Positions 6,883 through 41,822 of a stretch of DNA of 64,000 nucleotides are shown piece by piece; within the stretch, counting starts at the first letter, position 1, and each line of letters opens with the position of its first letter. This DNA comes from Escherichia phage vB_Ec-M-J. Location of the stretch: the sequence record OQ718158.1; one strand, given 5' to 3'. The notes beneath the pieces were generated by a model, which saw only the letters and a list, made by a program, of their open reading frames with translations, searched no databases and was not told where the DNA came from. The position numbers were made by a program, and so were the translations under genes.

Positions 6883-7290
6883 ATGGAGAACTATATGAAA
6901 GAAAAACGTTATTGTACATGTTGTAAAATTGAATTGGTTCGAAAGGGCCAAACAAAATATTGTAGTGTTGCATGTCAACAAGAGCTACAATATCAACAGA
7001 AAGTTGATAAATGGCTTAACGGTGAACATCCTGGATATAAAGGTATTACCATACAGTTATGTCCATTTGTGAGAAGATATCTACATGAAACACGCGGAAC
7101 TGCATGTGAAGAATGTGGATGGGATAAACGTCATCCAATAGATGGTGCAGTACTGACAGAAGTTGAGCACATTGATGGTGATGCTACAAATAATGACCTA
7201 CCAAATTTAAAAATCCTTTGCCCTAATTGTCATTCGATGACACCAACATTCAGAGCAAGGAACAAGAACTCCGCAAGGAATCGTAAATAA
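6883..7290 (+). CDS. HNH homing endonuclease
   Basis: N-terminal Cys cluster plus EVEHIDGD...NN...LCPNCHS HNH motif. Confidence 0.75.
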   Translation: MENYMKEKRYCTCCKIELVRKGQTKYCSVACQQELQYQQKVDKWLNGEHPGYKGITIQLCPFVRRYLHETRGTACEECGWDKRHPIDGAVLTEVEHIDGDATNNDLPNLKILCPNCHSMTPTFRARNKNSARNRK

Positions 7291-7306
7291 TTTTTTAAGG
7301 TACAAT

Positions 7307-7726
7307 ATGACATACAACATTGTTAAAATGGTGAACTACGTATTAAAAAACAACGCATGGTCACTGCATGATGTACAATTAGAAGATATTGGTGAAGTTA
7401 GAGTTTTTTGCTATGATGACGATTTGAACGAAACCACAGATTTGAGTAAATGTTTTAATATTTTTCTTGGTTATGAAATCGATAATCATTTTTATTCATT
7501 TGATGTGTATGTTGAACGAGTTAAAATCAGAATTTCTAATGTAAATAGTGATTATTTTGACACTATTATGATTGAATTGAATTTTGACGATATTGATACT
7601 GAAGAAAAATTCTTTCAGTACTGTCTCGTAAACGATCTAAATGGATTGACATTTGAGGACATTAAAGCTATACTTATAGTTCAAAGATTAATTCCAGAAG
7701 AGGTTATAAATCCCTTTAATGACTAG
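7307..7726 (+). CDS. hypothetical protein (EE-FQ motif family)
   Basis: TEEKFFQYCLVNDLNGLTFEDI motif; paralog of next gene. Confidence 0.6.
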   Translation: MTYNIVKMVNYVLKNNAWSLHDVQLEDIGEVRVFCYDDDLNETTDLSKCFNIFLGYEIDNHFYSFDVYVERVKIRISNVNSDYFDTIMIELNFDDIDTEEKFFQYCLVNDLNGLTFEDIKAILIVQRLIPEEVINPFND

Positions 7727-8078
7727 TTTAATAACTCGTATAATGCAAGATGTTCGTAAGAATCTTCATACTGGTAATTTTGATGATCCTAACATAAAAA
7801 TATTATGTTATGATGTATTCACACTGGTACACCCATCTGAATCTAATAATATATACATAGCATATACTTCTCCTAATATTTTGTATCAATTTGACTTATA
7901 TAGTACAATGGCTAAGATAACATTAGATGTTTCTAAGGAGCCATTTTTTATAGCAGTACGTGATTTTGAGTACACAGAAGAGTCATTATTCCAGTACTCA
8001 ATGATAAATGACATTGGTGACTTGACATTAGAAGAGATAAATGTTATAGTTGGTATGTGTCGTTTGATTAATCCATAA
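7719..8078 (+). CDS. hypothetical protein (EE-FQ motif family)
   Basis: TEESLFQYSMINDIGDLTLEEI motif; overlaps upstream gene by 8 nt. Confidence 0.6.
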   Translation: MTSLITRIMQDVRKNLHTGNFDDPNIKILCYDVFTLVHPSESNNIYIAYTSPNILYQFDLYSTMAKITLDVSKEPFFIAVRDFEYTEESLFQYSMINDIGDLTLEEINVIVGMCRLINP

Positions 8079-8091
8079 CTCGGAGCTTAAT

Positions 8092-8283
8092 ATGTTTTTG
8101 AATTTGTTATGCTTATTTGGTCGTACATTGGTTCTTGCTATTATTCATACACCTGGTATTCGTAATTATGTTTCTTATGAATTTAAGAAAAATTACCACA
8201 ACAATACTGAAGTTCGTGCAACTAAGATGTGCAAAGACTTCAATGGAGATGTTCCACCATTCAAGAAGTACGAGGATGAATAA
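8092..8283 (+). CDS. hypothetical protein
   Basis: GGAG SD; TAATG coupling to next gene. Confidence 0.5.
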   Translation: MFLNLLCLFGRTLVLAIIHTPGIRNYVSYEFKKNYHNNTEVRATKMCKDFNGDVPPFKKYEDE

Positions 8284-8567
8284 TGGAATTTATTGTTGCA
8301 CCTGATGAACTAAAAACATTCACGTTCCGAGACAATAACAATTATCCTTATACAAATCATTCATTGAATTCATTGCATGTTATTTCAATCATTGCATCTG
8401 AATACAGAGACAATCCATGTATTGATTTTAAAACCACTGATGGTGAATATACATGGGTAGTTCCGAACGATAAATACAGTTATCAGGGTGCAGTAGAGAT
8501 CCGCGACTCGATTCTAAAGCAAATCGAAGATGGACATACTCATCCTAAACTAAACATTCAGTACTGA
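8283..8567 (+). CDS. hypothetical protein
   Basis: TAATG overlap start. Confidence 0.55.
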   Translation: MEFIVAPDELKTFTFRDNNNYPYTNHSLNSLHVISIIASEYRDNPCIDFKTTDGEYTWVVPNDKYSYQGAVEIRDSILKQIEDGHTHPKLNIQY

Positions 8568-8726
8568 AATCGTTTAACCGGATAGCTTCTAGTCGGTACT
8601 GAATTCCTCCTTTTGTCTAGAAGCTATCACTCTTTTAAAGTATAATGATATCACCCTCATGGTTCATTATATTCGTTACCCTCTAACAGTATCTTTTTAT
8701 TCCTCTTTGATACTGTATTTTAGAAG

Positions 8727-8756
8727 TTGACATTTTTACTTCTACTGTGTTATACT
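8727..8756 (+). promoter_or_regulatory. sigma70-like promoter
   Basis: TTGACA-N18-TATACT. Confidence 0.5.
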
Positions 8757-8759
8757 TAA

Positions 8760-8795
8760 GGCTGATTCATTATGAATCGGCCTTTTTTCTTGTGG
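8760..8795 (+). terminator. hairpin plus T-run immediately downstream of promoter (attenuator-like)
   Basis: ggctgattca..tgaatcggcc stem followed by TTTTTTC. Confidence 0.4.
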
Positions 8796-8806
8796 GGATT
8801 AATGTA

Positions 8807-9223
8807 ATGAATAAAGAAGTTATTAGTTTAATGGATGAGTATATCAACCAAACATATCGTTTTATATTTTTTAATGCATTTGAGTCCAGGACAACGTATC
8901 ATTCTGGTGAATATGAGATAATAACTGGATCATTTCTTAACGGATACATGGAGTTTTTAGAACAAAGCGATAATGTTTTCATTTCCATATCTGAAAAACA
9001 TGGTGATGATTATGTTATTGATGTATGGCCTAATAAAGTAGAGATTGACACTACAAAGAAAATTGTAATTGATGTGGACGAATCATTGTATGATTTAACT
9101 GAAGATATGTATATGCAACTAAATTTCGTATACGATCTAACTAACATAAGTTATTCTAATCTAAGTAAATTATTTTATATTTGTGGTGTACTACATAAAA
9201 ACGTACAACAAAATAAAGGATAA
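8807..9223 (+). CDS. hypothetical protein (EE-FQ-like motif)
   Basis: ATG at 8807 (MNKEV); track ORF 8747 trimmed; TEDMYMQLNFVYDLTN motif. Confidence 0.55.
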   Translation: MNKEVISLMDEYINQTYRFIFFNAFESRTTYHSGEYEIITGSFLNGYMEFLEQSDNVFISISEKHGDDYVIDVWPNKVEIDTTKKIVIDVDESLYDLTEDMYMQLNFVYDLTNISYSNLSKLFYICGVLHKNVQQNKG

Positions 9224-9234
9224 ACATTTAAATG

Positions 9235-9263
9235 TTGACAATTGACAACATAAATGGTATCTT
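9235..9263 (+). promoter_or_regulatory. sigma70-like promoter
   Basis: TTGACA-N17-TATCTT with TG extension. Confidence 0.4.
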
Positions 9264-9295
9264 TGAAATTGCCAGAAACCTACGAGGAATATGAT

Positions 9296-9703
9296 ATGGT
9301 CAAAATTTTAAGTGACAATGCGGTTGATATTGTCATTGATGTACTTGAAAACAGTAATACATTTGAGAAGAAACACAGTACTGTATACTTCGGTAAAGAT
9401 TGTTGGCTGAACTATACATCTGATAGTTCATTTATAATTCGTGTTGAGAAGGGTGATATTGGATTAACGATACATGCTTCCTATACTAAAACAATCACTG
9501 TTATTGCCAACAAGCCAAGTACTTCTGATTTCTGGGATAGAATTGATGATTGTGACCATTTCATGTCAACATTCTATAAAACAGAAGAAGAACATTTCAT
9601 GGATAGTACTGTCAAAGAATTAGCTATTCCATTTAAACTTATGAAAGCAGCAAGAGATTTTATTTTAAAATACAAAAAAATAGGAGTTGATGATGCAATT
9701 TAA
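9296..9703 (+). CDS. hypothetical protein (EE-FQ motif family)
   Basis: ATG after ACGAGGAAT; KTEEEHFMDSTV motif; alternative start at 9254. Confidence 0.5.
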   Translation: MVKILSDNAVDIVIDVLENSNTFEKKHSTVYFGKDCWLNYTSDSSFIIRVEKGDIGLTIHASYTKTITVIANKPSTSDFWDRIDDCDHFMSTFYKTEEEHFMDSTVKELAIPFKLMKAARDFILKYKKIGVDDAI

Positions 9704-10139
9704 TGGTAAGGTTTCTAAAGTAGGTTTAGTTTTTGAAAATTGTGAGTTCATTGAGATTGATGTAAAGAATGTTTTATGGATGCATATTGCTGACGTGAAA
9801 ACTCTTTGTAGTCGTTTTTCCAACGGTCTAACTATTAGTACTGGTATTGGTGAGTTCGGTATTGCATTGCGTAGTGATACTCCATCGGATTTCATGGATA
9901 ACTCTACACTGTTAGACCGTTTAAAAATGCGTGATGTTACACACGTTTATCTTTATGATACTAATGGTGTTGAACAGCGTTATGTAGTTGAATGGGCTAA
10001 TTATAACCTTAGTGATCAATATTCAGTAAACCAGCGTGTTCAACTCACCCCTGGTGGTAATATTGTGTTTGTTAGTTCAACTGGTAAATTAATCAGTGTA
10101 GATGATGAAAGTATTGATCTATTCACTTCATATAACTAA
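9690..10139 (+). CDS. hypothetical protein
   Basis: AGGAG SD; overlaps upstream stop. Confidence 0.6.
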   Translation: MMQFNGKVSKVGLVFENCEFIEIDVKNVLWMHIADVKTLCSRFSNGLTISTGIGEFGIALRSDTPSDFMDNSTLLDRLKMRDVTHVYLYDTNGVEQRYVVEWANYNLSDQYSVNQRVQLTPGGNIVFVSSTGKLISVDDESIDLFTSYN

Positions 10140-10150
10140 TACGAGATAAT

Positions 10151-10570
10151 ATGAAAACAATCAAAACACATTTCAAAGATACATGGACAGAAGTAAGTAC
10201 TGGTAATATTCAAGATATTTTATACAGTACTGAAACTATTCATGTATATGATGAAGAGACAGCAGCCGAGCAGTTAAAGGTATTGCATCGTAGTGTAGGT
10301 GAACACACCGAGTACGGTGTCAAACATACTCGTGAATTGGTAAGTACTGATCATATTGACACCCGCACTGTAAATCTATCAAAAGAAGAAATGTTTGATT
10401 TTATTCTAAACAATACTTTAGCAATTCAACCAGATGGTTCACTATACAGTAAAACAGATGGTACACAAGTTCGTAAAAAGTACAATGTGACCATCAATGA
10501 TACGGTGATGTCTGGATATGATTTAGTTGATGCAATCAACGAGTACGTTTCTATGCAGAGGTTGAAATGA
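10151..10570 (+). CDS. hypothetical protein
   Basis: 139-aa ORF. Confidence 0.55.
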   Translation: MKTIKTHFKDTWTEVSTGNIQDILYSTETIHVYDEETAAEQLKVLHRSVGEHTEYGVKHTRELVSTDHIDTRTVNLSKEEMFDFILNNTLAIQPDGSLYSKTDGTQVRKKYNVTINDTVMSGYDLVDAINEYVSMQRLK

Positions 10571-10932
10571 TTAATCTGATATATTTTACAATTATTTGTT
10601 GCATTACTATTGTACTTTGTCGTCTAATTCATGTATACTCATATCATAAAGCGTTGAGAATCGAACAAGAGATTTACAACGAAAACCGTGAGCCAGAGCC
10701 AGAGAAGCTACCCCGCTCACCATATGCATTGAAGCGTGAGATGCATTCGGAGAGTAAGAAGTGGGGTTATGCAATAACCAAGCATGGTTATATCTACACT
10801 GCTGCAAATGGCTATTTTCAAATTCACCATGATCTTTCAGTTGCGATTGGAATTTTATGGGAAATGGAGGATATAGGTGGTTATGAGCGTACTAAATTCC
10901 CAAACTTACAAAATGATCCAGGAACTTCATGA
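10567..10932 (+). CDS. hypothetical membrane-anchored protein
   Basis: ATGA overlap; hydrophobic N-terminal helix. Confidence 0.55.
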   Translation: MINLIYFTIICCITIVLCRLIHVYSYHKALRIEQEIYNENREPEPEKLPRSPYALKREMHSESKKWGYAITKHGYIYTAANGYFQIHHDLSVAIGILWEMEDIGGYERTKFPNLQNDPGTS

Positions 10933-11086
10933 AGAACATGATATAATTGTAGATGTAGAAAAGAAGGAAGTTGTTATGAAGAAGCAAGCATACCGCATCT
11001 TAGACAACTTCTATCTTAAGGCATTTATAATGAAGTTCTGTGCAGACGAGCACTTAACAGGACGTGTTATACGCAAGGAGTCGTAG
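10913..11086 (+). CDS. hypothetical small protein
   Basis: ATG at 10913 overlapping upstream gene end. Confidence 0.4.
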   Translation: MIQELHEEHDIIVDVEKKEVVMKKQAYRILDNFYLKAFIMKFCADEHLTGRVIRKES

Positions 11087-11428
11087 ATGGACATGAGTTC
11101 AACAATTCAGTACTTGAGCGAGAATTTTGTCAAAATCATTTCACGTGGTGGTATGATTGTGCATCCTGAAACTGAAGATATGTATATCATTCGTTTTGAT
11201 GCAAATTCTTATGATCAAGTACTTGTTGTTTCGAAATTAGTAGGTTATAATGAAGTCGTTCAGTTCTGCTGTACCGAGTTCGGTATCTATATTAAAGATG
11301 CAGAAACCAATGAGATTTCACATTATTTTTATCACACACTGATGGGTACTAAAGATTTTGGATTGAAATTCAATGATTTAGTACAATGTCACTATATGTT
11401 TAAAACATACCCAGCATCTGGGAAATAA
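11087..11428 (+). CDS. hypothetical protein
   Basis: AGGAG SD then ATG. Confidence 0.6.
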   Translation: MDMSSTIQYLSENFVKIISRGGMIVHPETEDMYIIRFDANSYDQVLVVSKLVGYNEVVQFCCTEFGIYIKDAETNEISHYFYHTLMGTKDFGLKFNDLVQCHYMFKTYPASGK

Positions 11429-11439
11429 GGAGTAACAAT

Positions 11440-12255
11440 ATGAGCAACATTTTCTTCAAAACCATTTCCTTCAAAAAAGAATCTTACTCTTACGCTTATG
11501 TAGATGGTAAAGTACTCAATATCGTTCTAGATGGTGTTGATGTGCCTGTTCAATTTACCAGTCATCAAGAAGCGATTGAGGGTGCTCAAGAGCTTAACAG
11601 CTTACTAAATGGTATTGAGAAGAAACCTGAAGTTAAATCTGACCTTGATTTATTGGTTGACAAAATTAAAAGTGGTGAACTATTATCAATTCTAGACCAG
11701 TGTAATGAAAAATTACGTGGTGTTGTTGGTGATGTACGTACTACAGTTCAAGATCGTCTACTTGAGCAAGCATTCAAAGAAGTTACTAAGAAAACTGAAG
11801 AACGTGTTGAAGGTATGATTAAAAACATTGATGACGTTCTCACTCATATGTTCACCAAGCCATACGAATCAAGTACTGATTCTGAAGAGAAACAAGAAGA
11901 ACCAGTAGAACGCACCAAGCCATCTATTGTTACTAAAGTTAAACATAGTTTTGGTTCACTGGATGATGTATTTGGCTTTACAAATGTACGTGTTAGTACT
12001 GATGAAAAACCAGAAGTTGATGAAATGCTAATTGGTGACATGACAACTGGACAACTCAAAAAAGAGATTGATACCTTTGTTAATGAACTAATTAGTTCTG
12101 AACGTGCTGAAAATATGTTTAGCAGTATTTCAGCAAACTTCGGTAAAGAAGCAACTGAGCAAGCAGTACAGGCATTCAAAGATTTGATTTACACTGTTGC
12201 AATTGCTAATCCAGAACAAACACTGGAAGAAGTTCTACGTAAAAACTTCAAATAA
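11440..12255 (+). CDS. hypothetical acidic protein
   Basis: 271-aa ORF with AAGGAG SD; followed by terminator. Confidence 0.65.
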   Translation: MSNIFFKTISFKKESYSYAYVDGKVLNIVLDGVDVPVQFTSHQEAIEGAQELNSLLNGIEKKPEVKSDLDLLVDKIKSGELLSILDQCNEKLRGVVGDVRTTVQDRLLEQAFKEVTKKTEERVEGMIKNIDDVLTHMFTKPYESSTDSEEKQEEPVERTKPSIVTKVKHSFGSLDDVFGFTNVRVSTDEKPEVDEMLIGDMTTGQLKKEIDTFVNELISSERAENMFSSISANFGKEATEQAVQAFKDLIYTVAIANPEQTLEEVLRKNFK

Positions 12256-12261
12256 GATATA

Positions 12262-12298
12262 GATAAAAGAAAAGCCACTACAATGTAGTGGCTTTTTT
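12262..12298. terminator. bidirectional intrinsic terminator
   Basis: gccactacaatgtagtggc hairpin flanked by A-run and T-run between convergent genes. Confidence 0.65.
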
Positions 12299-12299
12299 G

Positions 12300-13457
12300 T
12301 TATGCGTTATAACCAACAATGACTACAGTACAGCCAAATGGTTCAACAACTTTTAATACAACATTATCATCTGCATCGAGTTCAACTTCACTTAGAACAA
12401 CATGATTGTCTTCAGCATATACTTGAACTTGTGGGAGGATTTTACCATGTTCACTGACAGGAATGGACAGTGTGTACATAGAATCACCATCAACTACCCA
12501 ATCACTATCGGTATACGTGTTGTGATATGGAGTGGTGTGTAAGGTTTTACCAATAATACTCAATGAGATTGGAGCGTCATCAGTTTGGTACACAGTAATA
12601 TTACCGCTAGGATCTACAATGAGGTCTACTCCAATTTGGAATAAATCACCACTGTATGCTTGTAGAGCAAGATACTCACCACGCTCATGCACAGTAGCTG
12701 GTACAGTTGCCATGTACATACCATCGGACGTGTACTCAAACTGAGATAGAAGTACTGAAGTAACGAAGTCAATATCTTCGCCGCTTTCTAGTATATCAAA
12801 TTCAATAGTTTTGGTATTATATATGTCAGAAGTGAGTATGATGGTTCCTTTACCGGATTGAGTAATTGGATCAACTGGAATACTAAAAACATCATCAATT
12901 ATTTCAGTTGTGAAGTACTCGGTTCCGTCAGGAAGTATAACGGTAATACGCATTCCAGTTGTATCAATGGCTGAACCTGCGTTGAATAGGCGACCACCTA
13001 CCAAATCATCACCTACGAACGTTGGGAACATAAGGATGTTGTCTATATCTCTATCTATAATCCCGCATTCAGGGGTGTACATATTATATAGTGTTTGTGA
13101 ACTACCTAGAATTGTTTTGTGCAAAAGAAACTTATAAACAAACCCAGTAGGATCTGATTCAAGTTTAGCATCTGAGTATCCTCTTACGAAAAAAGAGTTC
13201 TTTCTTATTTCACTTAGGATTTGGTCATTAGTTTTGTTGTAGTTTAATTGATATCCTTGTATATCCTTTGTTGTAATTTGTACTTTACGATAAATTACAT
13301 TACTTACAGGATCAAGTAAATCATATAATCTATGGCTTCTCTGACGATAGATTCGAACATTTTTGAGTTTAGTCCCATCGTTGAGAATTGCACCATCGAC
13401 TACATATCCACATTCACCGAACTTATATCGTCCAGCAGCAGCAATCGATCTTGACAT
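12300..13457 (-). CDS. hypothetical protein (lone minus-strand gene in plus-strand block)
   Basis: 385-aa ORF with GGAGGG SD upstream on minus strand. Confidence 0.65.
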   Translation of the reverse strand: MSRSIAAAGRYKFGECGYVVDGAILNDGTKLKNVRIYRQRSHRLYDLLDPVSNVIYRKVQITTKDIQGYQLNYNKTNDQILSEIRKNSFFVRGYSDAKLESDPTGFVYKFLLHKTILGSSQTLYNMYTPECGIIDRDIDNILMFPTFVGDDLVGGRLFNAGSAIDTTGMRITVILPDGTEYFTTEIIDDVFSIPVDPITQSGKGTIILTSDIYNTKTIEFDILESGEDIDFVTSVLLSQFEYTSDGMYMATVPATVHERGEYLALQAYSGDLFQIGVDLIVDPSGNITVYQTDDAPISLSIIGKTLHTTPYHNTYTDSDWVVDGDSMYTLSIPVSEHGKILPQVQVYAEDNHVVLSEVELDADDNVVLKVVEPFGCTVVIVGYNA

Positions 13458-13573: not shown

Positions 13574-14158
13574 ATGAGTGTTGTAGAAAAACGTTTAGTA
13601 CTGAAAAATGGTAAAATGACTGTTAAGCTATACAAAGATGAAGCTGATTCTTTTATGGCTAAAGCAATTGAGAAATCCGAACGATATAAAATTCTTGCAC
13701 CTGCAAGTAAATCGCCGTATGGGTTTAATCACGCTCACAGTCATTTTGTTGGTATGGTATGTGAACATGCTTCATTTGTACTTTTTAATGAAATTGAAAA
13801 CTATTCAGGTATTGCACTTAACATCGATCCAGCGTTCCAAAGTGATGGACGTGATGGGGAATGTGATATCAAAGTAAACAACTTAAGAATTGAAGTGAAA
13901 GGTATCAAGTACAAATCGTGGACCGACTTTGGACCATGTGTTAGTACTCGACAGTTAAAAAATATACAGAAAAAAGCTGACGTTATTCTGTGGGTATTGT
14001 ATAATGAGAAAAAGCAAGAATTCACATTTGAGGGATTCAACTATGTAAAAGACATTAGTTCGATTCCAGTTGTGCTAACAGGTGTACCAGGGCGACCAAT
14101 GATTGAAAATCACCCAGTACTGAGTATTATTAAACCACTTCAGGAGTTACCATTATGA
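13574..14158 (+). CDS. hypothetical protein
   Basis: 194-aa ORF after AAGGGG SD. Confidence 0.65.
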   Translation: MSVVEKRLVLKNGKMTVKLYKDEADSFMAKAIEKSERYKILAPASKSPYGFNHAHSHFVGMVCEHASFVLFNEIENYSGIALNIDPAFQSDGRDGECDIKVNNLRIEVKGIKYKSWTDFGPCVSTRQLKNIQKKADVILWVLYNEKKQEFTFEGFNYVKDISSIPVVLTGVPGRPMIENHPVLSIIKPLQELPL

Positions 14159-20297: not shown

Positions 20298-21092
20298 ATG
20301 AGCACTATAGATGAATTGATTCGCCGGAATTCAAAATACTACGAACCATCAGAAATTGTCGGCAACATTACTAAATCTGAGTTCGGACCAAATACTCGAA
20401 AACTCATTCATGTAATGTCACGTGATGGCTTTAAATGTGATTGTTGTGGTGAATCCAATGTGGTATTCACTTTACATAAGCACAGTACTAAAGACCGTTA
20501 TAAATTCAGACCTTATGTACTTAAAGGGAAACGCCTTGTACGCATGACGTTAGACCATAATGTACTAGACTGTCTTCAGGGCGGTAATGATAAAGAGAAC
20601 ATGACTGCATTGTGTGAGGATTGTAACGCATTACGCCAGCATAAGTTTGCTGAGTACAGTGAGTTTAAGTACTGGTATCATAACGCAGATCGTTCCATCG
20701 AGCCTGACGTTAACTACTGCTTCATTGAGTACATTAAGAATGCAAAAGATACATACATTCTAAAATCAATGTCACCTATTACAGTGTTCCCTGAGAATCT
20801 ATTCAGTACTATGCAGCGTGATTTTAAACGTGGTATCATTAATGCATTCAAACACTTAGACAAAGGTATCAAGCACTTTGAGGTGCAATGCTTAAATGAA
20901 GGAATGAATCGTTTAGTACAAATTTACATGAAATCATTTATAGGTGTTGACACCGCACGTCTACCAGTATATAATTACTTTATTGAAAGCGAAGAAGGTG
21001 AATCACTTCGTGATTATGGTGAAAGATTTAATAATAAAGTTTTCACTGCAATCGCAAACGAGATTCATTACTATAAACCATATGTAATTTAA
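20298..21092 (+). CDS. HNH-family endonuclease-like protein
   Basis: ATG at 20298; KCDCCGE...LDHNVLDC...ALCEDCNALRQHK Cys/His/Asn motif. Confidence 0.5.
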   Translation: MSTIDELIRRNSKYYEPSEIVGNITKSEFGPNTRKLIHVMSRDGFKCDCCGESNVVFTLHKHSTKDRYKFRPYVLKGKRLVRMTLDHNVLDCLQGGNDKENMTALCEDCNALRQHKFAEYSEFKYWYHNADRSIEPDVNYCFIEYIKNAKDTYILKSMSPITVFPENLFSTMQRDFKRGIINAFKHLDKGIKHFEVQCLNEGMNRLVQIYMKSFIGVDTARLPVYNYFIESEEGESLRDYGERFNNKVFTAIANEIHYYKPYVI

Positions 21093-21623: not shown

Positions 21624-21668
21624 GTTTATATCAAACGACACCCACTTTAACAAATAATAGGAAATATT

Positions 21669-21947
21669 ATGTCTTTTACCAAAGAAGAACGTGACCTTAT
21701 TAAAAAAGCAATCTGGTTTTATGCTAATGAAGGGGAGTGCGATGAAGAAAAAGCACGTGAACTGTGTAATATCCTTGAGCAGAAACAAGAACTGAAAGTT
21801 TATCGTATCCGTGTTTTGGATGACGGGGATCGTATTGTCCTAGCTGAAACAAAAGAAGAAGCAGAACAAATCTTCACTGATAAAAACGAAAATCCACATT
21901 GGATGGAAGAAGTCTGTGAAGTAAAAAAAGGTACTTATATCGATTGA
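21669..21947 (+). CDS. hypothetical acidic protein
   Basis: 92-aa ORF downstream of promoter. Confidence 0.6.
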   Translation: MSFTKEERDLIKKAIWFYANEGECDEEKARELCNILEQKQELKVYRIRVLDDGDRIVLAETKEEAEQIFTDKNENPHWMEEVCEVKKGTYID

Positions 21948-21972
21948 CTGTACTGAATAATAGCAGTATAAT
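21945..21972 (+). promoter_or_regulatory. sigma70-like promoter
   Basis: TTGACT-N16-TATAAT followed by gtttatatcaaa. Confidence 0.55.
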
Positions 21973-35086: not shown

Positions 35087-35425
35087 ATGGAACAACATTT
35101 TGAATTAATTAATAAGGTATCATTTTATGTAGTATCATTAATTTGGGTGTATTACATGTTTTGTTACATTATTGCATTCTTCCGATACACGACCTTGTAT
35201 CAACGCATATACTACGATGCACCCATTTCATTTATGATGTTCTGTGCATGTACGTGGGGGATAATTGAAGCACTGGTATGTGGATATAGTACTGACGAAT
35301 TAAATCTCGTATCGGGGTTGACATTACTAACAATTGCCATTATGATAGCTACTGTTCCGATATTTTTGCTCTTTAAACTGCTTCATCGTATCGATGAGTG
35401 GCGTAATAAAATCCCTGAAAAGTAA
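35087..35425 (+). CDS. small 3-TM membrane protein, family copy A
   Basis: Three hydrophobic helices; C-terminal WRNKIPEK. Confidence 0.6.
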   Translation: MEQHFELINKVSFYVVSLIWVYYMFCYIIAFFRYTTLYQRIYYDAPISFMMFCACTWGIIEALVCGYSTDELNLVSGLTLLTIAIMIATVPIFLLFKLLHRIDEWRNKIPEK

Positions 35426-35434
35426 GGATTGATA

Positions 35435-35776
35435 ATGATTTTTTACACTAATGCGTTTGCTTATGCCGTTGCATCAATCTACATTGTGTACTTCTTATTT
35501 GGTGGAGTACTGTACTTCTTTAAGTACAAAACATTGTTTAACCGAATGTATCCAAATCACCCAATTGTAGTAGTACTTTTGATGATTTCTGTTGCTCACA
35601 TCATTGTAGAAACAATAATGGGTATCAGTGCAGTACATTACAGTCTAGGTACTATTGTGATTATTACTATGATCATCGCATACATTTTAGTAATGGGTTC
35701 TGGTTTATTTGGGAATGTAGCAATGAAATTGTATAATCGAATTAAAACCTTACGTGATAATCTACCGGAGCGTTGA
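35435..35776 (+). CDS. small 3-TM membrane protein, family copy B
   Basis: C-terminal LRDNLPER; tandem to copy A. Confidence 0.6.
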   Translation: MIFYTNAFAYAVASIYIVYFLFGGVLYFFKYKTLFNRMYPNHPIVVVLLMISVAHIIVETIMGISAVHYSLGTIVIITMIIAYILVMGSGLFGNVAMKLYNRIKTLRDNLPER

Positions 35777-35777
35777 G

Positions 35778-36122
35778 ATGTATAATTTAAATTTAATCTC
35801 ATATATCATAACAACACTGTTTACTTTCTATACCTTTGTCGGTATACTCCTACTGTACTTTAAATTTTATAAACTCTTTGACCGTTTATATCCATCATTG
35901 GAACATGAATTCTTATTGGTGATGTACATCTGTTTAACGTGTATGTCTACATTTTTCACTGTATTTGATGGTATCATCGGTATTAAAGCTGAAGATCCAA
36001 ATGGCAGTACACTTGTTGCCTTTATCCTGGTAGGATTCTTCGGTACTTATATCACTTTCATTTCAACATGGTCTGTGGTTGATTATCTCATTAGATTACG
36101 AGATAAAATGCCAAATCGATAG
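35778..36122 (+). CDS. small 3-TM membrane protein, family copy C
   Basis: C-terminal LRDKMPNR; ATG 2 nt after upstream stop. Confidence 0.6.
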   Translation: MYNLNLISYIITTLFTFYTFVGILLLYFKFYKLFDRLYPSLEHEFLLVMYICLTCMSTFFTVFDGIIGIKAEDPNGSTLVAFILVGFFGTYITFISTWSVVDYLIRLRDKMPNR

Positions 36123-36131
36123 GGGATTGCT

Positions 36132-36389
36132 ATGTTTGCATTGCGTAATAAAAATACAAAAGAGATTCTATGTATCTCAACAGTATGGGATTGTGCAGGA
36201 AGTGAAATGATCCTCGAAGAAGGTTCAGGTGATTGTGTTTATGTTGTTCATGATCGTCGCGAACTGGAATCATTACTTGATGAATTTAATGCTGGTGGAA
36301 ATCCTAAAAGTACTCAATTCCCTGAGATCAGGAATCCAGCACCACCAGGCTCTTATGAAATTCTACAACTGTGGGAGATGGATAAGTAA
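36132..36389 (+). CDS. hypothetical protein
   Basis: 85-aa ORF. Confidence 0.55.
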   Translation: MFALRNKNTKEILCISTVWDCAGSEMILEEGSGDCVYVVHDRRELESLLDEFNAGGNPKSTQFPEIRNPAPPGSYEILQLWEMDK

Positions 36390-36769
36390 TGCGACAAATG
36401 CACAAAGTAACCGAGCTAAACAAGCGTCTGATTAAACAATCAATGTTTGAGGATAAAGAGTCTTACTATAACTTCAAACGTGCTGTAGAGGCTGCTATCC
36501 ACATTCAGAAGCTTAAAGATAGTGGATGTATTATTCTCGAAAATGGTTCTGACGTTGTTACTGATGACTTCAGTGTAGCGTTTGATGTTTCACCTGATGG
36601 TTCGCTATCAATGCCACGCTTAGGGACTGGTGACATGACTGTGTGGGTAGGTTTCACTATGGGGAATGTACCAGGCACGGTGTATGTAGATGATGCTGAG
36701 TTGAAAGAAAGCTTTAAAAACTTATCGCATCTTGAACCACAATACGCACATGAAATGAATTTATTTTGA
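36389..36769 (+). CDS. hypothetical protein
   Basis: TAATG coupling. Confidence 0.55.
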   Translation: MRQMHKVTELNKRLIKQSMFEDKESYYNFKRAVEAAIHIQKLKDSGCIILENGSDVVTDDFSVAFDVSPDGSLSMPRLGTGDMTVWVGFTMGNVPGTVYVDDAELKESFKNLSHLEPQYAHEMNLF

Positions 36770-36770
36770 G

Positions 36771-36799
36771 TTGACAAACTCATTCAGTACTGTATAATG
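36771..36799 (+). promoter_or_regulatory. sigma70-like promoter with cagtactg spacer
   Basis: TTGACA-N17-TATAAT followed by gtttatcaa. Confidence 0.6.
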
Positions 36800-36845
36800 T
36801 TTATCAAGGGGATGAACTTCTCATCCCCACAATCGAGGAATTGTC

Positions 36846-37400
36846 ATGATTACTTTTAAGAAAACTGCTAACCACATCCATGAGATCTACATTAACGGTC
36901 ACAAAGCTGGCCTTCTTCGTTTACTCGCCCATCATCCGAATATTACCGTATCTGATAATGAACCTAAAGATTGGCGTGTATTTTTCTTTGGAAAGTACAG
37001 TGATTTTCAAGTATCAAACCTGAAGAACATTCGTTCAGTATGCACGTTAACTGAAATTAAAGAAAAGTTAACCAAAGCATTGAAAACTAATCCAGATGGT
37101 GTTCTTCCACCTGATAACTTTGTAGAGAAAGGATATGCCTTAGCTCATTTCAAAGATGGTACTATTCAATCTATCAGTACTGAATATGAATATCAATGGA
37201 CTGAGTACTTCACTTATGGATCGCGTAATACATTGATGGCTTCACGTAGTAAATTGGAAGAAGTACTGACTCGTATGAATGAACGCGAGCGTCAGTACTA
37301 TGACAAACCAGAAATGTGGAGTTCAACTTACATTGACCGTATTGACTATGTTATTATGACTCCAATCTTTGACACTGCTTACTATGATTCTTTGAAATAA
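36846..37400 (+). CDS. hypothetical protein
   Basis: CGAGGAA SD; 184 aa. Confidence 0.65.
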   Translation: MITFKKTANHIHEIYINGHKAGLLRLLAHHPNITVSDNEPKDWRVFFFGKYSDFQVSNLKNIRSVCTLTEIKEKLTKALKTNPDGVLPPDNFVEKGYALAHFKDGTIQSISTEYEYQWTEYFTYGSRNTLMASRSKLEEVLTRMNERERQYYDKPEMWSSTYIDRIDYVIMTPIFDTAYYDSLK

Positions 37401-37411
37401 GGATAACTTAT

Positions 37412-37588
37412 ATGAAACTACGTACTCGTAATCGACTGATGGATGCACTGTACCATGAACAGCTTTCACTGAATGAAGTGAAGCGACAGTTAATGTACAC
37501 ATATCTGTTACCCGCTCGCATTGCAAAACAACGTGCTAAAGAATTGCTGAAAGAAGCAATCGAGTACTGGGAATCTGATTCGTACTAA
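37412..37588 (+). CDS. hypothetical small basic protein (58 aa)
   Basis: AAGGA SD; below track cutoff; the overlapping antisense track ORF is rejected. Confidence 0.45.
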   Translation: MKLRTRNRLMDALYHEQLSLNEVKRQLMYTYLLPARIAKQRAKELLKEAIEYWESDSY

Positions 37589-37616
37589 TTGTCACGTTAA
37601 TTAAGTGAGGCGATAA

Positions 37617-37868
37617 ATGAAAATTTTATTAGTTCTAATACTACTAATTGTTTTACCATTTACGTTAGTATCCCCTGAACTTGCATGGAATGTGTTTGTG
37701 TACTTACTATGTACTATGATAGTAAATGGTATCTTGTTCTTAGTTCTATTCATAAATGGAATAGGACACGGTGGAGGATGGACCAGTACTGCTGATATTG
37801 TACATAAAACCACTATGTCTTTATTTGTAGTGTGGAATTTATTCTGGACTTGGTTTGTGTTCTTCTAA
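37617..37868 (+). CDS. hypothetical membrane protein
   Basis: GAGG SD; TM helices. Confidence 0.55.
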   Translation: MKILLVLILLIVLPFTLVSPELAWNVFVYLLCTMIVNGILFLVLFINGIGHGGGWTSTADIVHKTTMSLFVVWNLFWTWFVFF

Positions 37869-37878
37869 TTAAAAAAAT

Positions 37879-38250
37879 ATGAATATAGATTTGAAAGGTG
37901 CAACACGAACTGTCATACTCATTGGGGAATATGCTATCAAGATTCCAACCTTTAAAAGTTGGAAGCTATTCTTAACAGGGATGATAGCTAACCTCAATGA
38001 ACGTTCGTGGATGCAGTACTCCAAGCGTAGTGATACTGGTATCTGTCCTACTTTGTGGTCATCATGTACTGGACTAGTAACTGTACAGAAACGTTGTAAG
38101 CCAGTACAACATAGGGGTTTATTTTGGGTGGAGTTGTGTGCTTTAGCATTGAATTCAGAGTTAAGTACTGACTTCTTCTATTCAGATGCGAAGCCAGAAA
38201 ACTTTGGGTATCTGTGTGGTAAGTTGGTTAAACTTGATTATGGAGATTAA
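37879..38250 (+). CDS. hypothetical protein
   Basis: 123-aa ORF. Confidence 0.5.
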   Translation: MNIDLKGATRTVILIGEYAIKIPTFKSWKLFLTGMIANLNERSWMQYSKRSDTGICPTLWSSCTGLVTVQKRCKPVQHRGLFWVELCALALNSELSTDFFYSDAKPENFGYLCGKLVKLDYGD

Positions 38251-38251
38251 T

Positions 38252-38521
38252 ATGTACGCATTGTATAATAAAGAAAAGAAACGATTTGCTAAGGTTGAAA
38301 TTTCGATTGATACATTTGATATGTTGGAGTACTGTATTGTAACGGACTTATATGCTAACTTGTATTACGTTCTTGATGACGTATCAGTACTGCAACGATT
38401 GCTTGAGAATTCCAAAAGTCAATGCCAGGGCATCCATGATGGTTCATCTTATGAAACACCTGAGTGTTCCTACGGCTATCTGGACGGGTATGAGATTGTG
38501 AAGTTGGGGATTGTTGAATAA
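38252..38521 (+). CDS. hypothetical protein
   Basis: ATG at 38252 after GGAGA. Confidence 0.5.
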   Translation: MYALYNKEKKRFAKVEISIDTFDMLEYCIVTDLYANLYYVLDDVSVLQRLLENSKSQCQGIHDGSSYETPECSYGYLDGYEIVKLGIVE

Positions 38522-38533
38522 ATGGATTAAACA

Positions 38534-38947
38534 ATGAAGAAGTGTATCACGTGTAATATTGAAAAAGACATTAGTGAATTTGGTATAAGAAGTGATACTG
38601 GGAAACATAGAAATACATGCAAAGGTTGTAGTAATATTACCAGTAAGAAAACCAGAAATAAAAAAACTGATGTCAAAAAACTTGAAGAAATCAAAAGAAA
38701 AAATAAAGATTTCATGACCAGAGTTAAATCATTTTATGGTTGTAGTGTTTGTATGATGAAGTATCCAGAATGTTTAGACTTTCACCATCTTGACCCTAAT
38801 ACCAAAGAACATACACCAAGTTCTATGTTCAGTAAAAGTCGAGATGCTATCAAAGATGAAATTCGAAAGTGTATGATTCTTTGTTCTAATCACCATCGCA
38901 TGGTACATTCTGGTAGACTATGTTTGATTGAAAGAAAAAAGGGTTGA
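38534..38947 (+). CDS. HNH homing endonuclease
   Basis: CxxC pairs plus DFHHLDPNTKEH...ILCSNHHRMVH; stop codon lies within the -35 of the next cassette. Confidence 0.7.
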   Translation: MKKCITCNIEKDISEFGIRSDTGKHRNTCKGCSNITSKKTRNKKTDVKKLEEIKRKNKDFMTRVKSFYGCSVCMMKYPECLDFHHLDPNTKEHTPSSMFSKSRDAIKDEIRKCMILCSNHHRMVHSGRLCLIERKKG

Positions 38948-38973
38948 CTTCGGTCAGCCCTTTTTGCTATAAT
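38941..38973 (+). promoter_or_regulatory. PeSL-like promoter/UUCG-hairpin cassette
   Basis: gggTTGACTtcggtcagccc hairpin, T-run, TATAAT. Confidence 0.65.
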
Positions 38974-39001
38974 CATTTCATCGAAACGAGAGGATGAATA
39001 C

Positions 39002-39517
39002 ATGACACGCATTAACTTAGTACACGTTAAAGAACTTGCTGACCAACATCTGATGGCTGAATATCGTGAACTCCCACGTGTGTTTGGTGCTGTACAAAAA
39101 CATGTTCAAGCACGTAAGCGAGTCCGTGATTTCAAAATTAACAGTACTTACCTGTTAGGTTCAGGTCATGTAACATTCTTCTACAACAAGTTATTGTACT
39201 TACAGAAGCGTCATATTGATATTGTTAACGAATGTTTGCGTCGTGGTATGAAGATTCAAAACACTGAAGTAAACGACATTAGCGGATTCCCTGCTGAGTT
39301 TTGTAATGACTACGTACCATCGGAGTCAGAGATTAAAATGTCTCGTGAGCGTTTGATTGAGAAGCTCCAGATGAAGCCTACGTGGTATAAATTTACTGAC
39401 GTTGAACGCCCACAGTACGTTAAAGATATGCAGGACGTAAGTAGTAATATAGAATCTAGTACTGATATGTTAGACGAAATTGAAGAACAAATCAAAGATG
39501 AAATGAATAATTATTAA
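39002..39517 (+). CDS. denV: endonuclease V (pyrimidine-dimer DNA glycosylase/AP lyase), T4 DenV homolog
   Basis: N-terminus [35 protein letters not shown]...RVRDFKI...GHVTFFY closely matches T4 endonuclease V as recalled from memory. Confidence 0.8.
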
Positions 39518-39522
39518 AGGTA

Positions 39523-39540
39523 AGGGTTAACTTCGGTCAC
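39523..39540 (+). repeat. degenerate remnant of PeSL-like cassette
   Basis: gggttaacttcggtcac resembles the cassette hairpin but lacks T-run and -10. Confidence 0.35.
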
Positions 39541-39555
39541 ACAAAGGAACATAAC

Positions 39556-39750
39556 ATGTTATTAGTATATTCAAAGCGTTTCTGGATTTCTTTTATTGTA
39601 CTATCGCTTATCGGCTTCGGTGTGAGTATACTCTTTTCGTGGGATGAATTGGGTACATGGTATTATGAAGTTCCGTGGTACATGAAGATAGCTCCTTGTT
39701 ATGCGGCATTGTTCGTGTCATTCCTTATTGTTGTCTTCAGCGAGGATTAG
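39556..39750 (+). CDS. hypothetical membrane protein
   Basis: AAGGAA SD; two TM helices. Confidence 0.55.
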   Translation: MLLVYSKRFWISFIVLSLIGFGVSILFSWDELGTWYYEVPWYMKIAPCYAALFVSFLIVVFSED

Positions 39751-39801
39751 TTGATGTAGTAGGTGCTACACCAAAGTATTTGGATATTTGAGATATAAAC
39801 A

Positions 39802-39830
39802 TTGACACCTGTTCTATCTTTCTGTATTAT
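39802..39830 (+). promoter_or_regulatory. sigma70-like promoter
   Basis: TTGACA-N17-TATTAT. Confidence 0.5.
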
Positions 39831-39856
39831 GTACATCACCAAATGAGGAATACCAC

Positions 39857-40216
39857 ATGGCATCTTTAAGTGAAATCGCGGAATACAACCCACTAACAAT
39901 CTCAACAATTCAACGTACAAAAACTTTTTATTTCCGTCCTGCTGATGGATGGAAACGTGGAATGAATGGTGACTATCGAGTACTGGAAGATGCACTCGTC
40001 GAGCGTATCAACTCTGAACTACATAAGTATGAAGGTGTTAAAGTTGTGCGTTCAACTTCTCGTTATTTTGAGTACTACATTGAGTCTTCAACTGTAAATG
40101 AAAACTCATCATTCTCGGTGGATAACACTGATATTCTTCGCAATGCAGTTGGTCTGTTATGCAACATTGCTGAGGAAATGGGATTAACTATTACTACAAT
40201 GAGTGAATTAGAATGA
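39857..40216 (+). CDS. hypothetical protein
   Basis: GAGGAA SD. Confidence 0.6.
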   Translation: MASLSEIAEYNPLTISTIQRTKTFYFRPADGWKRGMNGDYRVLEDALVERINSELHKYEGVKVVRSTSRYFEYYIESSTVNENSSFSVDNTDILRNAVGLLCNIAEEMGLTITTMSELE

Positions 40217-40410
40217 TTAAAACTTTTATTCTTACTATGGTATTTGGGTCTTATGGGTATGGTGGTGGTGTAGCAACAGTTGAGTATCCATTATACGAAG
40301 ATTGTAAGGCCGCCGCTGAAGTGTTTGTAAAAACAACCAAAGATTTAGCAACTGTCACTGATGCAAAAGCTTGGTGTACAACTAAAAATACACCAGAAAC
40401 TAAGAAATAA
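40213..40410 (+). CDS. hypothetical secreted/membrane protein
   Basis: ATGA overlap; hydrophobic N-terminus. Confidence 0.5.
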   Translation: MIKTFILTMVFGSYGYGGGVATVEYPLYEDCKAAAEVFVKTTKDLATVTDAKAWCTTKNTPETKK

Positions 40411-40418
40411 AAAATAAA

Positions 40419-40451
40419 GGGTTGACTTCGGTCAGCCCTTTTTGCTATAAT
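40419..40451 (+). promoter_or_regulatory. PeSL-like promoter/UUCG-hairpin cassette
   Basis: Near-identical copy of cassette at 38941 and 41830. Confidence 0.65.
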
Positions 40452-40477
40452 TATTTCATCAACTGATGAGGTAACAA

Positions 40478-40714
40478 ATGAAACTATCTTTTATACGATT
40501 AGCTGAATTTTTCGGTACTAATGTAATTACTCTACAACAAATCGCAGATAATACATCATTAACTACTCAAGAAGTACTTGACTTAGATGTAATTCAGTGC
40601 GATAATACTTCCATCGATTACAAAGAAGGTCTTGTCGAAAAAGATAAGATTCAAGCTAAGATTAATGGTGCTGGACGGGTTCAGTACTGGAAAGGAGTTT
40701 TAAGTAATGTATAA
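40478..40714 (+). CDS. hypothetical protein
   Basis: GAGG SD in conserved cassette leader. Confidence 0.55.
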   Translation: MKLSFIRLAEFFGTNVITLQQIADNTSLTTQEVLDLDVIQCDNTSIDYKEGLVEKDKIQAKINGAGRVQYWKGVLSNV

Positions 40715-41822
40715 ATTTTATTTTAATGACGATGGTGAAAAAGTTTATTTCCACGAAGAACTTGGTATGCGTTTTGAATGGATGCACGCGGAAGACATTG
40801 AACAATTTTCTTGTGGAAAAACTGCCAAAGACCACGTTGATGACATAGAGGCATCATTCTATGATTTAGGAATAACTGATATCACAATTTTGGGTATTGG
40901 TGTGTCAAACGCAGCTGAATTTGGTATTTCTGGAAATTCACATGCTAAAATCGTCTTAAAAAAAGACGATATCATCTATAATAATTATAAAATAACTGCT
41001 TTTAAAACAAAGCTTAATAAGTTGTCAGAAGGTGATGGTATTAAGTTATCTTTTTCATACACAAATGATAATTATTACTATTACGTAACCAAACTTGCAA
41101 AATTACAATCTAAAAACTGTCATATACATCCAAATGAAATAATTGATAATGGAATTTCATCTAAAATAAAATTCACATATAGTGATGGTGTAACTGTACC
41201 TAGAAGAATAAATGATATATTGACAAAAACTAAAATTAATGTGAGTTATTTTGTAGATGATGATATTAGAGATGGGGTAGCTTTAAATCGATGTAGAGAA
41301 TTGAAATATCATTTTCAGTCTATTTACAAGCATGAGAATGGACGATACTTTGTAAAATATGAGTGTACTAGAGGTCATCAATGTGATCAAGACTATCATG
41401 CATTTACTGGTACAGCGAAGCAATCATGTGGTGTGTGTTCTAAACTTAAGACACACTCATATGGTCATAATGATACCATGAAATTTTTAAGGAATTTGCA
41501 TATTACAATAACGGAAAAAACTTTCAATGATTTGAAAGATAAAATGAAACTTCCATATGATTTTTATGTGAAAGATTTAAATGCGTTGATAGAATATGAC
41601 GGTAGTGATCATTTTAAAAATAAGTCATCTCGAAACAATTTTATTGATCGTCAGAAGAAAGATAAAATGAAAACGGAGTACGCAATCAACAATGGATATA
41701 ACTTCCTACGAATTGCATATTATGAAGGTCATCTTGAAGTACTGGAATCTTTCCTGAAACTCATCGAAGAGAACCCAGGAAAGCAAATCGTACAGATTTA
41801 TGGTGATGTGAAAATCATCTAA
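40707..41822 (+). CDS. putative nuclease with C-terminal Vsr/DUF559-like domain
   Basis: C-terminal ALIEYDGSDHF...RQKKD...NGYNFLRI pattern plus internal Cys cluster; family assignment from memory. Confidence 0.4.
   Translation: MYKFYFNDDGEKVYFHEELGMRFEWMHAEDIEQFSCGKTAKDHVDDIEASFYDLGITDITILGIGVSNAAEFGISGNSHAKIVLKKDDIIYNNYKITAFKTKLNKLSEGDGIKLSFSYTNDNYYYYVTKLAKLQSKNCHIHPNEIIDNGISSKIKFTYSDGVTVPRRINDILTKTKINVSYFVDDDIRDGVALNRCRELKYHFQSIYKHENGRYFVKYECTRGHQCDQDYHAFTGTAKQSCGVCSKLKTHSYGHNDTMKFLRNLHITITEKTFNDLKDKMKLPYDFYVKDLNALIEYDGSDHFKNKSSRNNFIDRQKKDKMKTEYAINNGYNFLRIAYYEGHLEVLESFLKLIEENPGKQIVQIYGDVKII

Follow-up and report, generated by a model that had tools for sequence, protein, structure and literature searches.

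The 64,000-nucleotide stretch of Escherichia phage vB_Ec-M-J DNA that we analyzed (sequence record OQ718158.1; this whole stretch is called the window below, and all positions are counted from its first letter) carries four nuclease genes, here called A (6883-7290), B (20298-21092), C (38534-38947) and D (40707-41822), within a long series of small + strand genes of ~35% G+C that adjoins a tRNA cluster. Megablast comparison of the 6-46 kb part found the E. coli jumbo phages WPEC5, EC.P1, Turkey3, BF17, fEgEco12, TH47, CMSTMSU and WPEC3 at 95-99% identity and the 121Q/PBECO4 clade of the genus Asteriusvirus at ~85% identity, and by its sequence the window is from an Asteriusvirus (121Q/PBECO4-like) E. 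coli jumbo phage. The original prediction for this region described several freestanding nuclease genes, two of them clear HNH endonucleases (A and C), one HNH-like (B) and one with a C-terminal Vsr/DUF559-like motif (D), and took their insertion points as likely homing or gene-conversion hotspots. The first part of this held for every one of the genes in profiles, motifs and coordinates. The second part held for A, C and D, which are sporadic and lie in variable slots that are empty or differently filled in relatives, and it failed for B, which is fixed in every record compared. We consider it likely that A, C and D are mobile, selfish or semi-selfish genes of the homing-endonuclease type and that B is a fixed, conserved gene; homing (site-specific cleavage and then copying) at A, C and D is what we infer from the patterns described below.

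All four open reading frames (ORFs) lie on the + strand, their likeness to nucleases is far above chance, and by several independent criteria all four are real nuclease genes, cleavage itself being predicted. The product of gene A scores 21.4 bits with the Pfam HNH model (E = 2.8e-4), which is exactly the gathering cut-off, matches the PHROG 1271 'HNH endonuclease' profile at 5.9e-18, and has the full motif CxxC...EVEHIDGD...N...CPNCH. That of gene C has an N-terminal zinc ribbon and a C-terminal HNH region, with the motif CSVC...LDFHHLD...N...CSNHH; it matches PHROG 2255 'HNH endonuclease' at 9.3e-32, and its Pfam match is weak (HNH_2, E = 0.067, below cut-off). Gene B encodes a 264-aa HNH/HNN nuclease with the motif TLDH...N...CEDCN and a C-terminal helical domain for which no structural match was found, and it matches PHROG 35175 'HNH endonuclease' at 3.3e-148 and Pfam at E = 0.02, again below cut-off. 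The start given for B, ATG 20298, is the right one: its homologues are annotated as 795 bp long, and the longest ORF here begins at TTG 20208. A, B and C all agree with the HNH fold in three dimensions, have the beta-beta-alpha-metal core (a catalytic His that as a rule forms part of a D/E-H dipeptide, with an Asn further downstream) and match curated HNH profiles through PHROG, more weakly through Pfam. Domain searches had been proposed as the check on the four genes; PHROG bears out all of them and Pfam only A. Pfam alone is thus a poor test, as only A reaches its gathering score and C, B and D would falsely count as refuted. A tblastn search of the window with every nuclease type found in the relatives gave no further nuclease copies or remnants.

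Gene D encodes a freestanding protein of 371 aa whose C-terminal part (~265-371) is a PD-(D/E)xK domain of the Vsr/DUF559/EDxHD type. The 'Vsr/DUF559-like' label is right for this protein because it matches PHROG 559 at 5e-27 and PHROG 9084 'homing endonuclease' at 1.2e-19; the Pfam DUF559 match (E = 0.14) is below cut-off. The C-terminal catalytic domain agrees with the Vsr endonuclease fold, residues D285, E296, D298, H302 and D319 are invariant in 25 relatives, and a zinc-finger-like stretch rich in Cys is found in the N-terminal and middle parts. A sequence-profile search of PDB gave no match to D and a profile search gave no NUMOD hits; relatives bear DUF4379, DUF723 or CapR modules. Neither the NUMOD/helix-turn-helix (HTH) repeats nor the intron or intein residence of the I-Bth0305I type is found in D, which is freestanding. 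The public name 'HNH endonuclease' for a protein identical to D is a misnomer, since D-type proteins are Vsr-like.

Alignment with nine relatives shows that gene A is one part of a single 527-nt cassette (6770-7296), which consists of a tRNA-Thr(UGU) gene (6770-6842, +), a 40-nt spacer and the HNH gene, and which stands, with sharp junctions, in place of one or two resident tRNA-Thr genes; at the same place six of the nine have only one or two tandem tRNA-Thr genes. In a census of a phage collection the cassette was present in 3 of 36 related records, the remainder having the flanks only. The cassette tRNA is divergent and A/T-rich. ARAGORN calls it tRNA-Thr(tgt), it scores 52.8 bits with the Rfam tRNA model, and every one of its stems is paired; its D-loop lacks GG and its T-loop is UGCAAUU. 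It is 100% identical in WPEC5 and TH47 and 55% identical to the resident allele of JP4 and WPEC3, and in EC.P1 the same HNH gene is tied to a second tRNA variant with compensatory T-stem changes. Among the resident genes, copy 1 of fEgEco12 (L003 7988-8061; also in CMSTMSU) matches at 100% identity the tRNA-Thr on the chromosome of 5,420 complete E. coli genomes, which suggests that it was captured from the host gene or converted by it. It differs from the JP4 tRNA-Thr at 10 positions, 9 of which are in the anticodon stem.

The true start of A is likely ATG 6895, which is preceded by the Shine-Dalgarno (SD) sequence GGAG at 6885-6888 and agrees with a 396-bp annotation in WPEC5. The transcript can form a hairpin at 6862-6897 (+) that covers both the SD sequence and this probable AUG (-11 kcal/mol, z = -5.3 versus shuffled sequences), and the inner stem of this hairpin is retained in EC.P1; it is possible that it sequesters the SD sequence and start and so would damp the translation of A. 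The HNH gene of GAP32 is 82.8% identical to A in nucleotides over 238 nt, in genomes that otherwise have no DNA similarity here.

Is the association of A with a tRNA-Thr gene peculiar to these phages? Homologues of A adjoin a tRNA-Thr(tgt) gene in seven of the eight phage-collection genomes first checked, and in EK80 and PMBT27 as well; the CB7 homologue is the exception. The genomes with such a neighbor are HdH2 and PMBT27 (T5-like), B01 and EK80 (Sugarlandvirus), GAP32 and XbC2 (Mimasvirus), Ro1 (Vequintavirinae), LPCS28 (Straboviridae) and Ochrobactrum phage OC, and the linkage spans Demerecviridae, Vequintavirinae, Straboviridae, Kyanoviridae, Mimasvirus and Asteriusvirus. In IMG/VR a tRNA-Thr(tgt) neighbor is present at 9 of 11 loci with at least 50% identity to A and at 14 of 24 full-length loci, upstream of the gene in some and downstream in others, and more distant homologues of A adjoin other tRNAs. 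CBB has an HNH remnant directly 3' of its tRNA-Thr, and the CBB genome paper mentions an HNH gene 'at the end of' a tRNA gene (PMC5259590). The T5-like phages are an independent replicate of this linkage; the HNH ORF lies there with its stop codon sharing the first base of tRNA-Thr. Here the tRNA allele goes with the nuclease: the anticodon stem is ACGGT/ACCGT in both HNH+ genomes (2/2) and GTTGC/GCATC in the loci that are HNH- (15/15), so that all five anticodon-stem pairs are exchanged by compensatory pairs, and the rest of the tRNA is nearly identical. A literature search found no description of an HNH/tRNA-Thr(UGU) association or of a compensatory anticodon-stem allele, and strict linkage across six phage groups together with such an allele, of which we could not find an account, is apparently undescribed. 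The members of the A family are probably, to judge from this linkage, homing endonucleases that target the tRNA-Thr gene, likely its anticodon-stem DNA, the linked allele being immune. We advance more tentatively, as a real possibility that we would not yet back, the wider proposal that A belongs to a widespread undescribed lineage which has the tRNA-Thr(UGU) gene as its dedicated target and which spreads between unrelated phage families with an immune allele or with forced rewriting of the stem.

Gene C is freestanding and lies between a 111-aa ORF and a stem-loop/promoter element upstream of denV. Among the related records it is intact in 9, carries the same deletion in 7, is cleanly absent from 8 and is replaced by another short insert in 3. 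The deleted allele has the same internal gap of 317 nt (38550-38866) in all seven records, with both ends of the gene left, and intact C genes are 94-100% identical in both clades, which are generally 72-86% identical to each other. An unoccupied site has the sequence ...GTTGAATAA|AGAAAAGGGTTGAC; the left end of the C insert is directly after the upstream stop codon and its right end is a near-copy of the empty-site sequence. The stop codon of C itself falls within the stem of a promoter/terminator hairpin (38941-38973, +; one of the PeSL-like elements discussed below, with an 11/12 match to the sigma-70 consensus). This pattern fits the life cycle of a homing endonuclease, in that what may be a full series of invasion, decay and loss is represented. 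At high identity C is limited to Asteriusvirus, and its next homologue, in GAP32, is 47.7% identical.

The slot of gene D extends from denV to a conserved AAA-like ATPase gene (41892-42662) and is either empty or filled by one of at least three unrelated types of nuclease. D-type proteins are 371-382 aa long in the window, JP4 and TH47, and have mutual identities of only 59% and ~35-49%; the type comprises the window and three records at 59.7% identity. The slot is empty in fEgEco12 and EC.P1, in 121Q it holds a 487-aa protein with CapR repeats, and in Turkey3 it holds proteins of 471 and 365 aa. WPEC5, Turkey3 and WPEC3 have repeat-rich proteins, 230-516 aa long, in a second sub-slot directly after a shorter denV. 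The nuclease C-termini of WPEC3, Turkey3 and 121Q have a T5orf172/GIY-like look for which Pfam gave no support, its only matches being the CapR repeats in 121Q gp221, and we do not assign them to that type. The D ORF is only 62-78% identical to that of JP4, in flanks that are 90-98% identical. The ATPase gene is 62-78% identical in WPEC3 (L002), which has a different nuclease, and 98-100% identical in other close relatives; given this divergent ATPase beside a different nuclease, flanking alleles therefore co-vary with nuclease type.

Just upstream of D, and overlapping its start by 8 nt, is a conserved 78-aa ORF (MKLSFIRLAEFFGT...; 40478-40714, +; PHROG 34150, 3.5e-53), which is 92-95% identical to its counterparts in 121Q and JP4. 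It precedes the nuclease in every occupied genome (371 aa in the window, and 372, 382, 487 and 471 aa as listed for JP4, TH47, 121Q and Turkey3, respectively) and is a candidate anchor or target gene for the nucleases of this slot. The denV gene (39002-39517, +; PHROG 1183, 8.5e-59) encodes a pyrimidine-dimer glycosylase of the T4 endonuclease V type and is so annotated in the relatives; it is a resident repair gene between the C and D slots and not a homing nuclease, and its 3' end (from 39406) differs in relatives with other nuclease types. After denV comes a variable module with three small ORFs (64, 119 and 65 aa; 39556-40410, +). The 65-aa ORF (40213-40410) has no counterpart in the nine relatives compared and no PHROG match, and JP4 has an unrelated 203-aa ORF there.

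The boundaries of these modules coincide with copies of a repeated element. The composite element GGGTTGACTTCGGTCAGCCCTTTTTGCTATAAT is present in the window in ten copies, all on the + strand (19209, 27682, 31276, 32056, 33637, 34319, 38942, 39525, 40420 and 41832), and for the repeat GGTTGACTTCGGTCAGCC these ten copies compare with 0.02 expected. The 33-nt element consists of the hairpin GGGTTGAC-TTCG-GTCAGCCC and a T run, with an embedded promoter (TTGACT at -35 and TGCTATAAT at -10). Four promoter-like sites in the 38-42 kb region match the sigma-70 consensus at 11 of 12 positions, and three of the four are the element's own TTGACT-18-TATAAT promoters with the extended -10 TG. The copies at 38942, 39525, 40420 and 41832 bracket the 3' end of C, denV, the small-ORF module and the module of the 78-aa ORF plus D. 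The first of them contains the C stop codon (above); the second (39525-39542, +) is degenerate, with 3 mismatches, and is the left end of a 2.3-kb segment missing in fEgEco12 and EC.P1; the third (40419-40451, +) opens the transcription unit of the 78-aa ORF and D; and the fourth (41831-41863, +) closes the D module and is the right end of the same deletion. The elements are of the PeSL type, that is, repeated intergenic stem-loops with an overlapping sigma-70 promoter at indel boundaries, and the same element was matched in Rak2, K64-1, Erwinia and Serratia jumbo phages and Vibrio phage phi-pp2.

These modules also lie in DNA of unusual similarity between the clades. Identity to the 121Q/JP4 clade is 94-98% at 36400-40800 and 41800-42200 versus 72-86% in most of the window, and around C and D (36.4-40.8 kb) inter-clade identity is 96-98%. 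To judge from these values the 36.4-40.8 kb region appears to be a recently exchanged tract, whatever the driver of the exchange. The high identity of the tract, the 94-100% identity of C and the 82.8% identity of A to its GAP32 homologue are all compatible with lateral spread and are no proof of conversion driven by the nucleases.

Gene B differs from the other three in being present at the same position in every Asteriusvirus record. It is 76-79% identical to its counterparts in 121Q and JP4, its immediate neighbors are 60-92% identical, and the regional identity to these two phages around B has a median of 87% and a lower quartile of 75%. An exhaustive HMMER search reveals a B family of ~26 representatives below E 1e-10, each 260-330 aa long, of which a word-indexed protein search returned only the close relatives; distant homologues occur in related jumbo-phage genera at 26-43% identity. 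None of the residues C47, C50, T84, D86, H87, N101, C106, C109, N110 and R113 varies in an alignment of 23 members of the family. On these comparisons B is vertically inherited under purifying selection in the Rak2-like jumbo phages, with its active site intact, and the 'insertion point' idea fails for it for this reason. B presumably serves the phage itself; DNA processing or attack on host DNA are our guesses as to how. Downstream of B, the segment at 21636-21965 (ORF 21669-21947, 92 aa, PHROG 24324) is a presence/absence polymorphism, the ORF being absent from WPEC3, fEgEco12, CMSTMSU, TH47 and EC.P1 and present in WPEC5, Turkey3, JP4 and 121Q.

How might A, C and D move? At each of the three loci presence is sporadic among collinear relatives, and the genes appear to use intergenic slots that are occupied in some close relatives and are empty, degraded or differently filled in others. 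In a mixed infection the enzyme would cut the allele without its gene, and recombinational repair would then copy the nuclease gene and flanking DNA into the cut genome. Gene A would move in one piece with a tRNA-Thr(UGU) gene of its own; its target would probably be the resident tRNA-Thr gene, the anticodon-stem DNA most likely, and the tRNA allele linked to A would probably be the cleavage-immune version. Gene C is inserted precisely after the upstream ORF's stop codon and before the promoter/terminator stem-loop, and D, as a Vsr-like enzyme of the EDxHD/Hef type, would compete with unrelated nucleases for the slot downstream of the 78-aa ORF.

A number of points weigh against this account. 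What we observed are the folds, motifs, presence and absence, junctions, tRNA-Thr linkage and allele differences; cleavage by A, C and D, their targets, the direction of transfer and the way in which the genes are copied are deduced from them. No fixed flank ('immunity') polymorphism is found within 120 nt of C in genomes that are occupied (6), deleted (2) or empty (4) at this locus; C, if it homes, probably disrupts the target by the insertion itself. The HNH+ T5-like genomes are only two and are mutually related. The direction of events at A is ambiguous, as the tRNA plus HNH cassette could be ancestral (it is present in GAP32 and XbC2 and has left a remnant in CBB) and the host-identical tRNA-Thr a later invader, and variation in the anticodon stem could stem from escape from host tRNA-targeting nucleases (PMC10264068). 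Lastly, the 2.3-kb deletion in fEgEco12 and EC.P1 (39540-41827) runs from the 39525 copy of the repeated element to the 41832 copy, and since elements stand at module ends and this deletion extends from copy to copy, plain homologous recombination may suffice at C and D. Taken to its end, this would mean that the patterns at C and D come from modular shuffling between PeSL-like stem-loops, a mechanism documented in T4-type phages (PMC2839356, PMC4122927), with the nucleases as passive cargo and no homing. The great excess of elements over expectation and their positions at the C 3' end, after denV, before the 78-aa ORF and after D speak for it; we nevertheless find it rather unlikely, as it leaves unexplained why the cargo of a slot is so often a nuclease (of at least four unrelated nuclease-like types in the case of D), the left junction of C, directly after a stop codon, has no element, and A, where there is no such element, lies outside its reach. 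Shuffling and homing are moreover not exclusive, as a double-strand break would stimulate recombination at the repeats.

For gene A the corresponding alternative is that it is not a homing endonuclease of tRNA-Thr at all, and that the linkage and stem differences result from host tRNA-targeting defenses or simply from inheritance together within tRNA clusters, which are prone to gather HNH genes. Escape of phage tRNAs from host anticodon nucleases through anticodon-arm changes has been reported (PMC10264068), freestanding nucleases such as T4 segB and T5 F-TflI/II/IV are common in phage tRNA clusters (PMC2330249), the resident alleles without HNH likewise vary mostly in the anticodon stem (9 of the 10 JP4/fEgEco12 differences above), and there are the more distant homologues beside other tRNAs. 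We regard this explanation as unlikely all the same: the neighbor is specifically tRNA-Thr(UGU) at most of the close IMG/VR loci and for most phage-collection homologues, over six groups, the tRNA can be on either side of the gene, which is hard to obtain by co-inheritance alone, and the correlation of stem allele with HNH presence in T5-like phages is perfect. A different possibility is that the phages have domesticated A, C and D, as weapons against competing phages or to shut out co-infecting relatives, and that these genes are not purely selfish. Their enzymes would cut the genomes of rivals and so bias which markers are inherited, or halt replication. Such weapons would have the same biochemistry as homing, and marker exclusion by T4 Seg/Mob enzymes and the inheritance bias of the tRNA region due to SegB are documented (PMC2330249). 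The 96-98% tract around C and D suggests recent exchange, and because some resident Asteriusvirus tRNA-Thr copies are identical to the host gene, A might cut host DNA too. The frequent decay of C (seven records with the same deletion) and its outright absence from eight argue against a strong benefit, and we think this proposal quite improbable. Finally, B could also be a homing endonuclease that has swept to fixation in the genus. It is labelled HNH endonuclease by both PHROG and GenBank, and a small indel (21636-21965) lies 550 nt downstream of it; its unvarying place in all Asteriusvirus records, an identity to 121Q in line with that of its neighbors, and catalytic and Zn residues invariant out to other genera, which indicate long purifying selection, unlike the decay expected after fixation, make this very improbable. 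We therefore keep homing at A, C and D, and a fixed B, as the preferred explanation.

Precedents exist for all of these features, namely freestanding HNH and Vsr-like nucleases, nucleases in tRNA clusters and PeSL-type shuffling, and because genes of the freestanding homing-endonuclease kind are well known to make large phage genomes mosaic, the general finding is an expected one. T4 SegB and T5 F-TflI/II/IV are, like A, strain-variable intergenic nucleases in a phage tRNA cluster whose neighboring tRNA alleles differ, and for SegB it has been demonstrated that the enzyme causes the tRNA region to be inherited preferentially (PMC2330249). The hairpin over the ribosome-binding site of A calls to mind the discussion of tightly controlled expression in SegB and the F-Tfl enzymes of T5 (PMC2330249). 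SegB is a GIY-YIG enzyme, whereas the F-Tfl enzymes and A are HNH, and the A family is set apart from SegB and F-Tfl by its specific tie to tRNA-Thr(UGU), seen in many phage families, and by its own tRNA allele in Asteriusvirus. A and C share the beta-beta-alpha-metal motif and paired CxxC zinc sites with the phage HNH proteins of PHROG 2255 and 1271 (FelixO1-like, T5-like, GAP32), are of similar size (~130-140 aa), and like them have homologues scattered over unrelated phages; we found no determined target site for any close relative of A or C. The nuclease domain of D groups with the EDxHD/Vsr-like homing endonucleases, a family that explicitly includes freestanding phage Hef-type enzymes (PMC3239194). 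I-Bth0305I, whose motif residues are E170, D196, H213 and D222 (PMC3239194), is intron-encoded and has NUMOD/HTH DNA-binding repeats, whereas D is freestanding and has a Cys-rich, zinc-finger-like N-terminal region; in sequence D is closer to DUF559 (ExDGxxH) than to the published EDxHD logo. The PeSL cassettes of T4-type phages have the same arrangement of terminator-like hairpin and sigma-70 promoter and likewise recur between genes, where insertions, deletions and replacements begin or end (PMC2839356, PMC4122927). The copies described here differ from them in sequence and in being in a Rak2-like jumbo phage, and the coincidence of breakpoints with them points to a possible role in recombination.

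An HNH family linked to tRNA-Thr(UGU), with immunity-like alleles, gives a concrete model of how selfish nucleases shape the tRNA gene sets of phages. If the model is true, selfish nucleases would directly drive tRNA-gene turnover and sequence diversification in phage genomes, and the Asteriusvirus A enzyme might cut the thrU-type gene of the host also. A is furthermore a possible new sequence-specific nuclease with a predictable target, and the slot downstream of denV, for which several unrelated nuclease families contend, is a natural system for the study of competition among homing elements. 'HNH endonucleases' of the B type should not be taken as mobile elements, and the label corrections (D is Vsr-like, B is not mobile), together with the other points above, bear on the annotation of therapeutic jumbo phages.

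Several further observations concern the neighboring DNA. The tRNA cluster has a second nuclease slot, between tRNA-Ser and tRNA-Ser/Met (window 5422-5755; L007 5500-6024; L001 41524-42066), in which Turkey3, WPEC3 and JP4 have a 174-aa HNH gene, NUMOD4-type by annotation, and WPEC5 has a 180-aa HNH gene. The window has no gene in this slot, and its tRNA-Met/Asn stretch at 5570-5755 is unalignable with Turkey3, WPEC3, JP4 and WPEC5. The ORF at 13574-14158 was not counted as a nuclease, as it has no Pfam match at E <=0.05 and its PHROG family (16175) is of unknown function; its fEgEco12 homologue (g508) is annotated 'putative endonuclease'. Directly 3' of tRNA-Ser(tga), at 3517-3595 (+), is a weak tRNA-like sequence (Rfam tRNA, 32.6 bits) that ARAGORN does not call, which may be a decaying tRNA gene because 121Q has tRNA-Leu(taa) at the equivalent place. 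The region at 3620-4106 contains three successive overlapping ORFs of 165 bp (54 aa each) that look like a tandem triplication, and three 165-bp genes are annotated in the relatives too.

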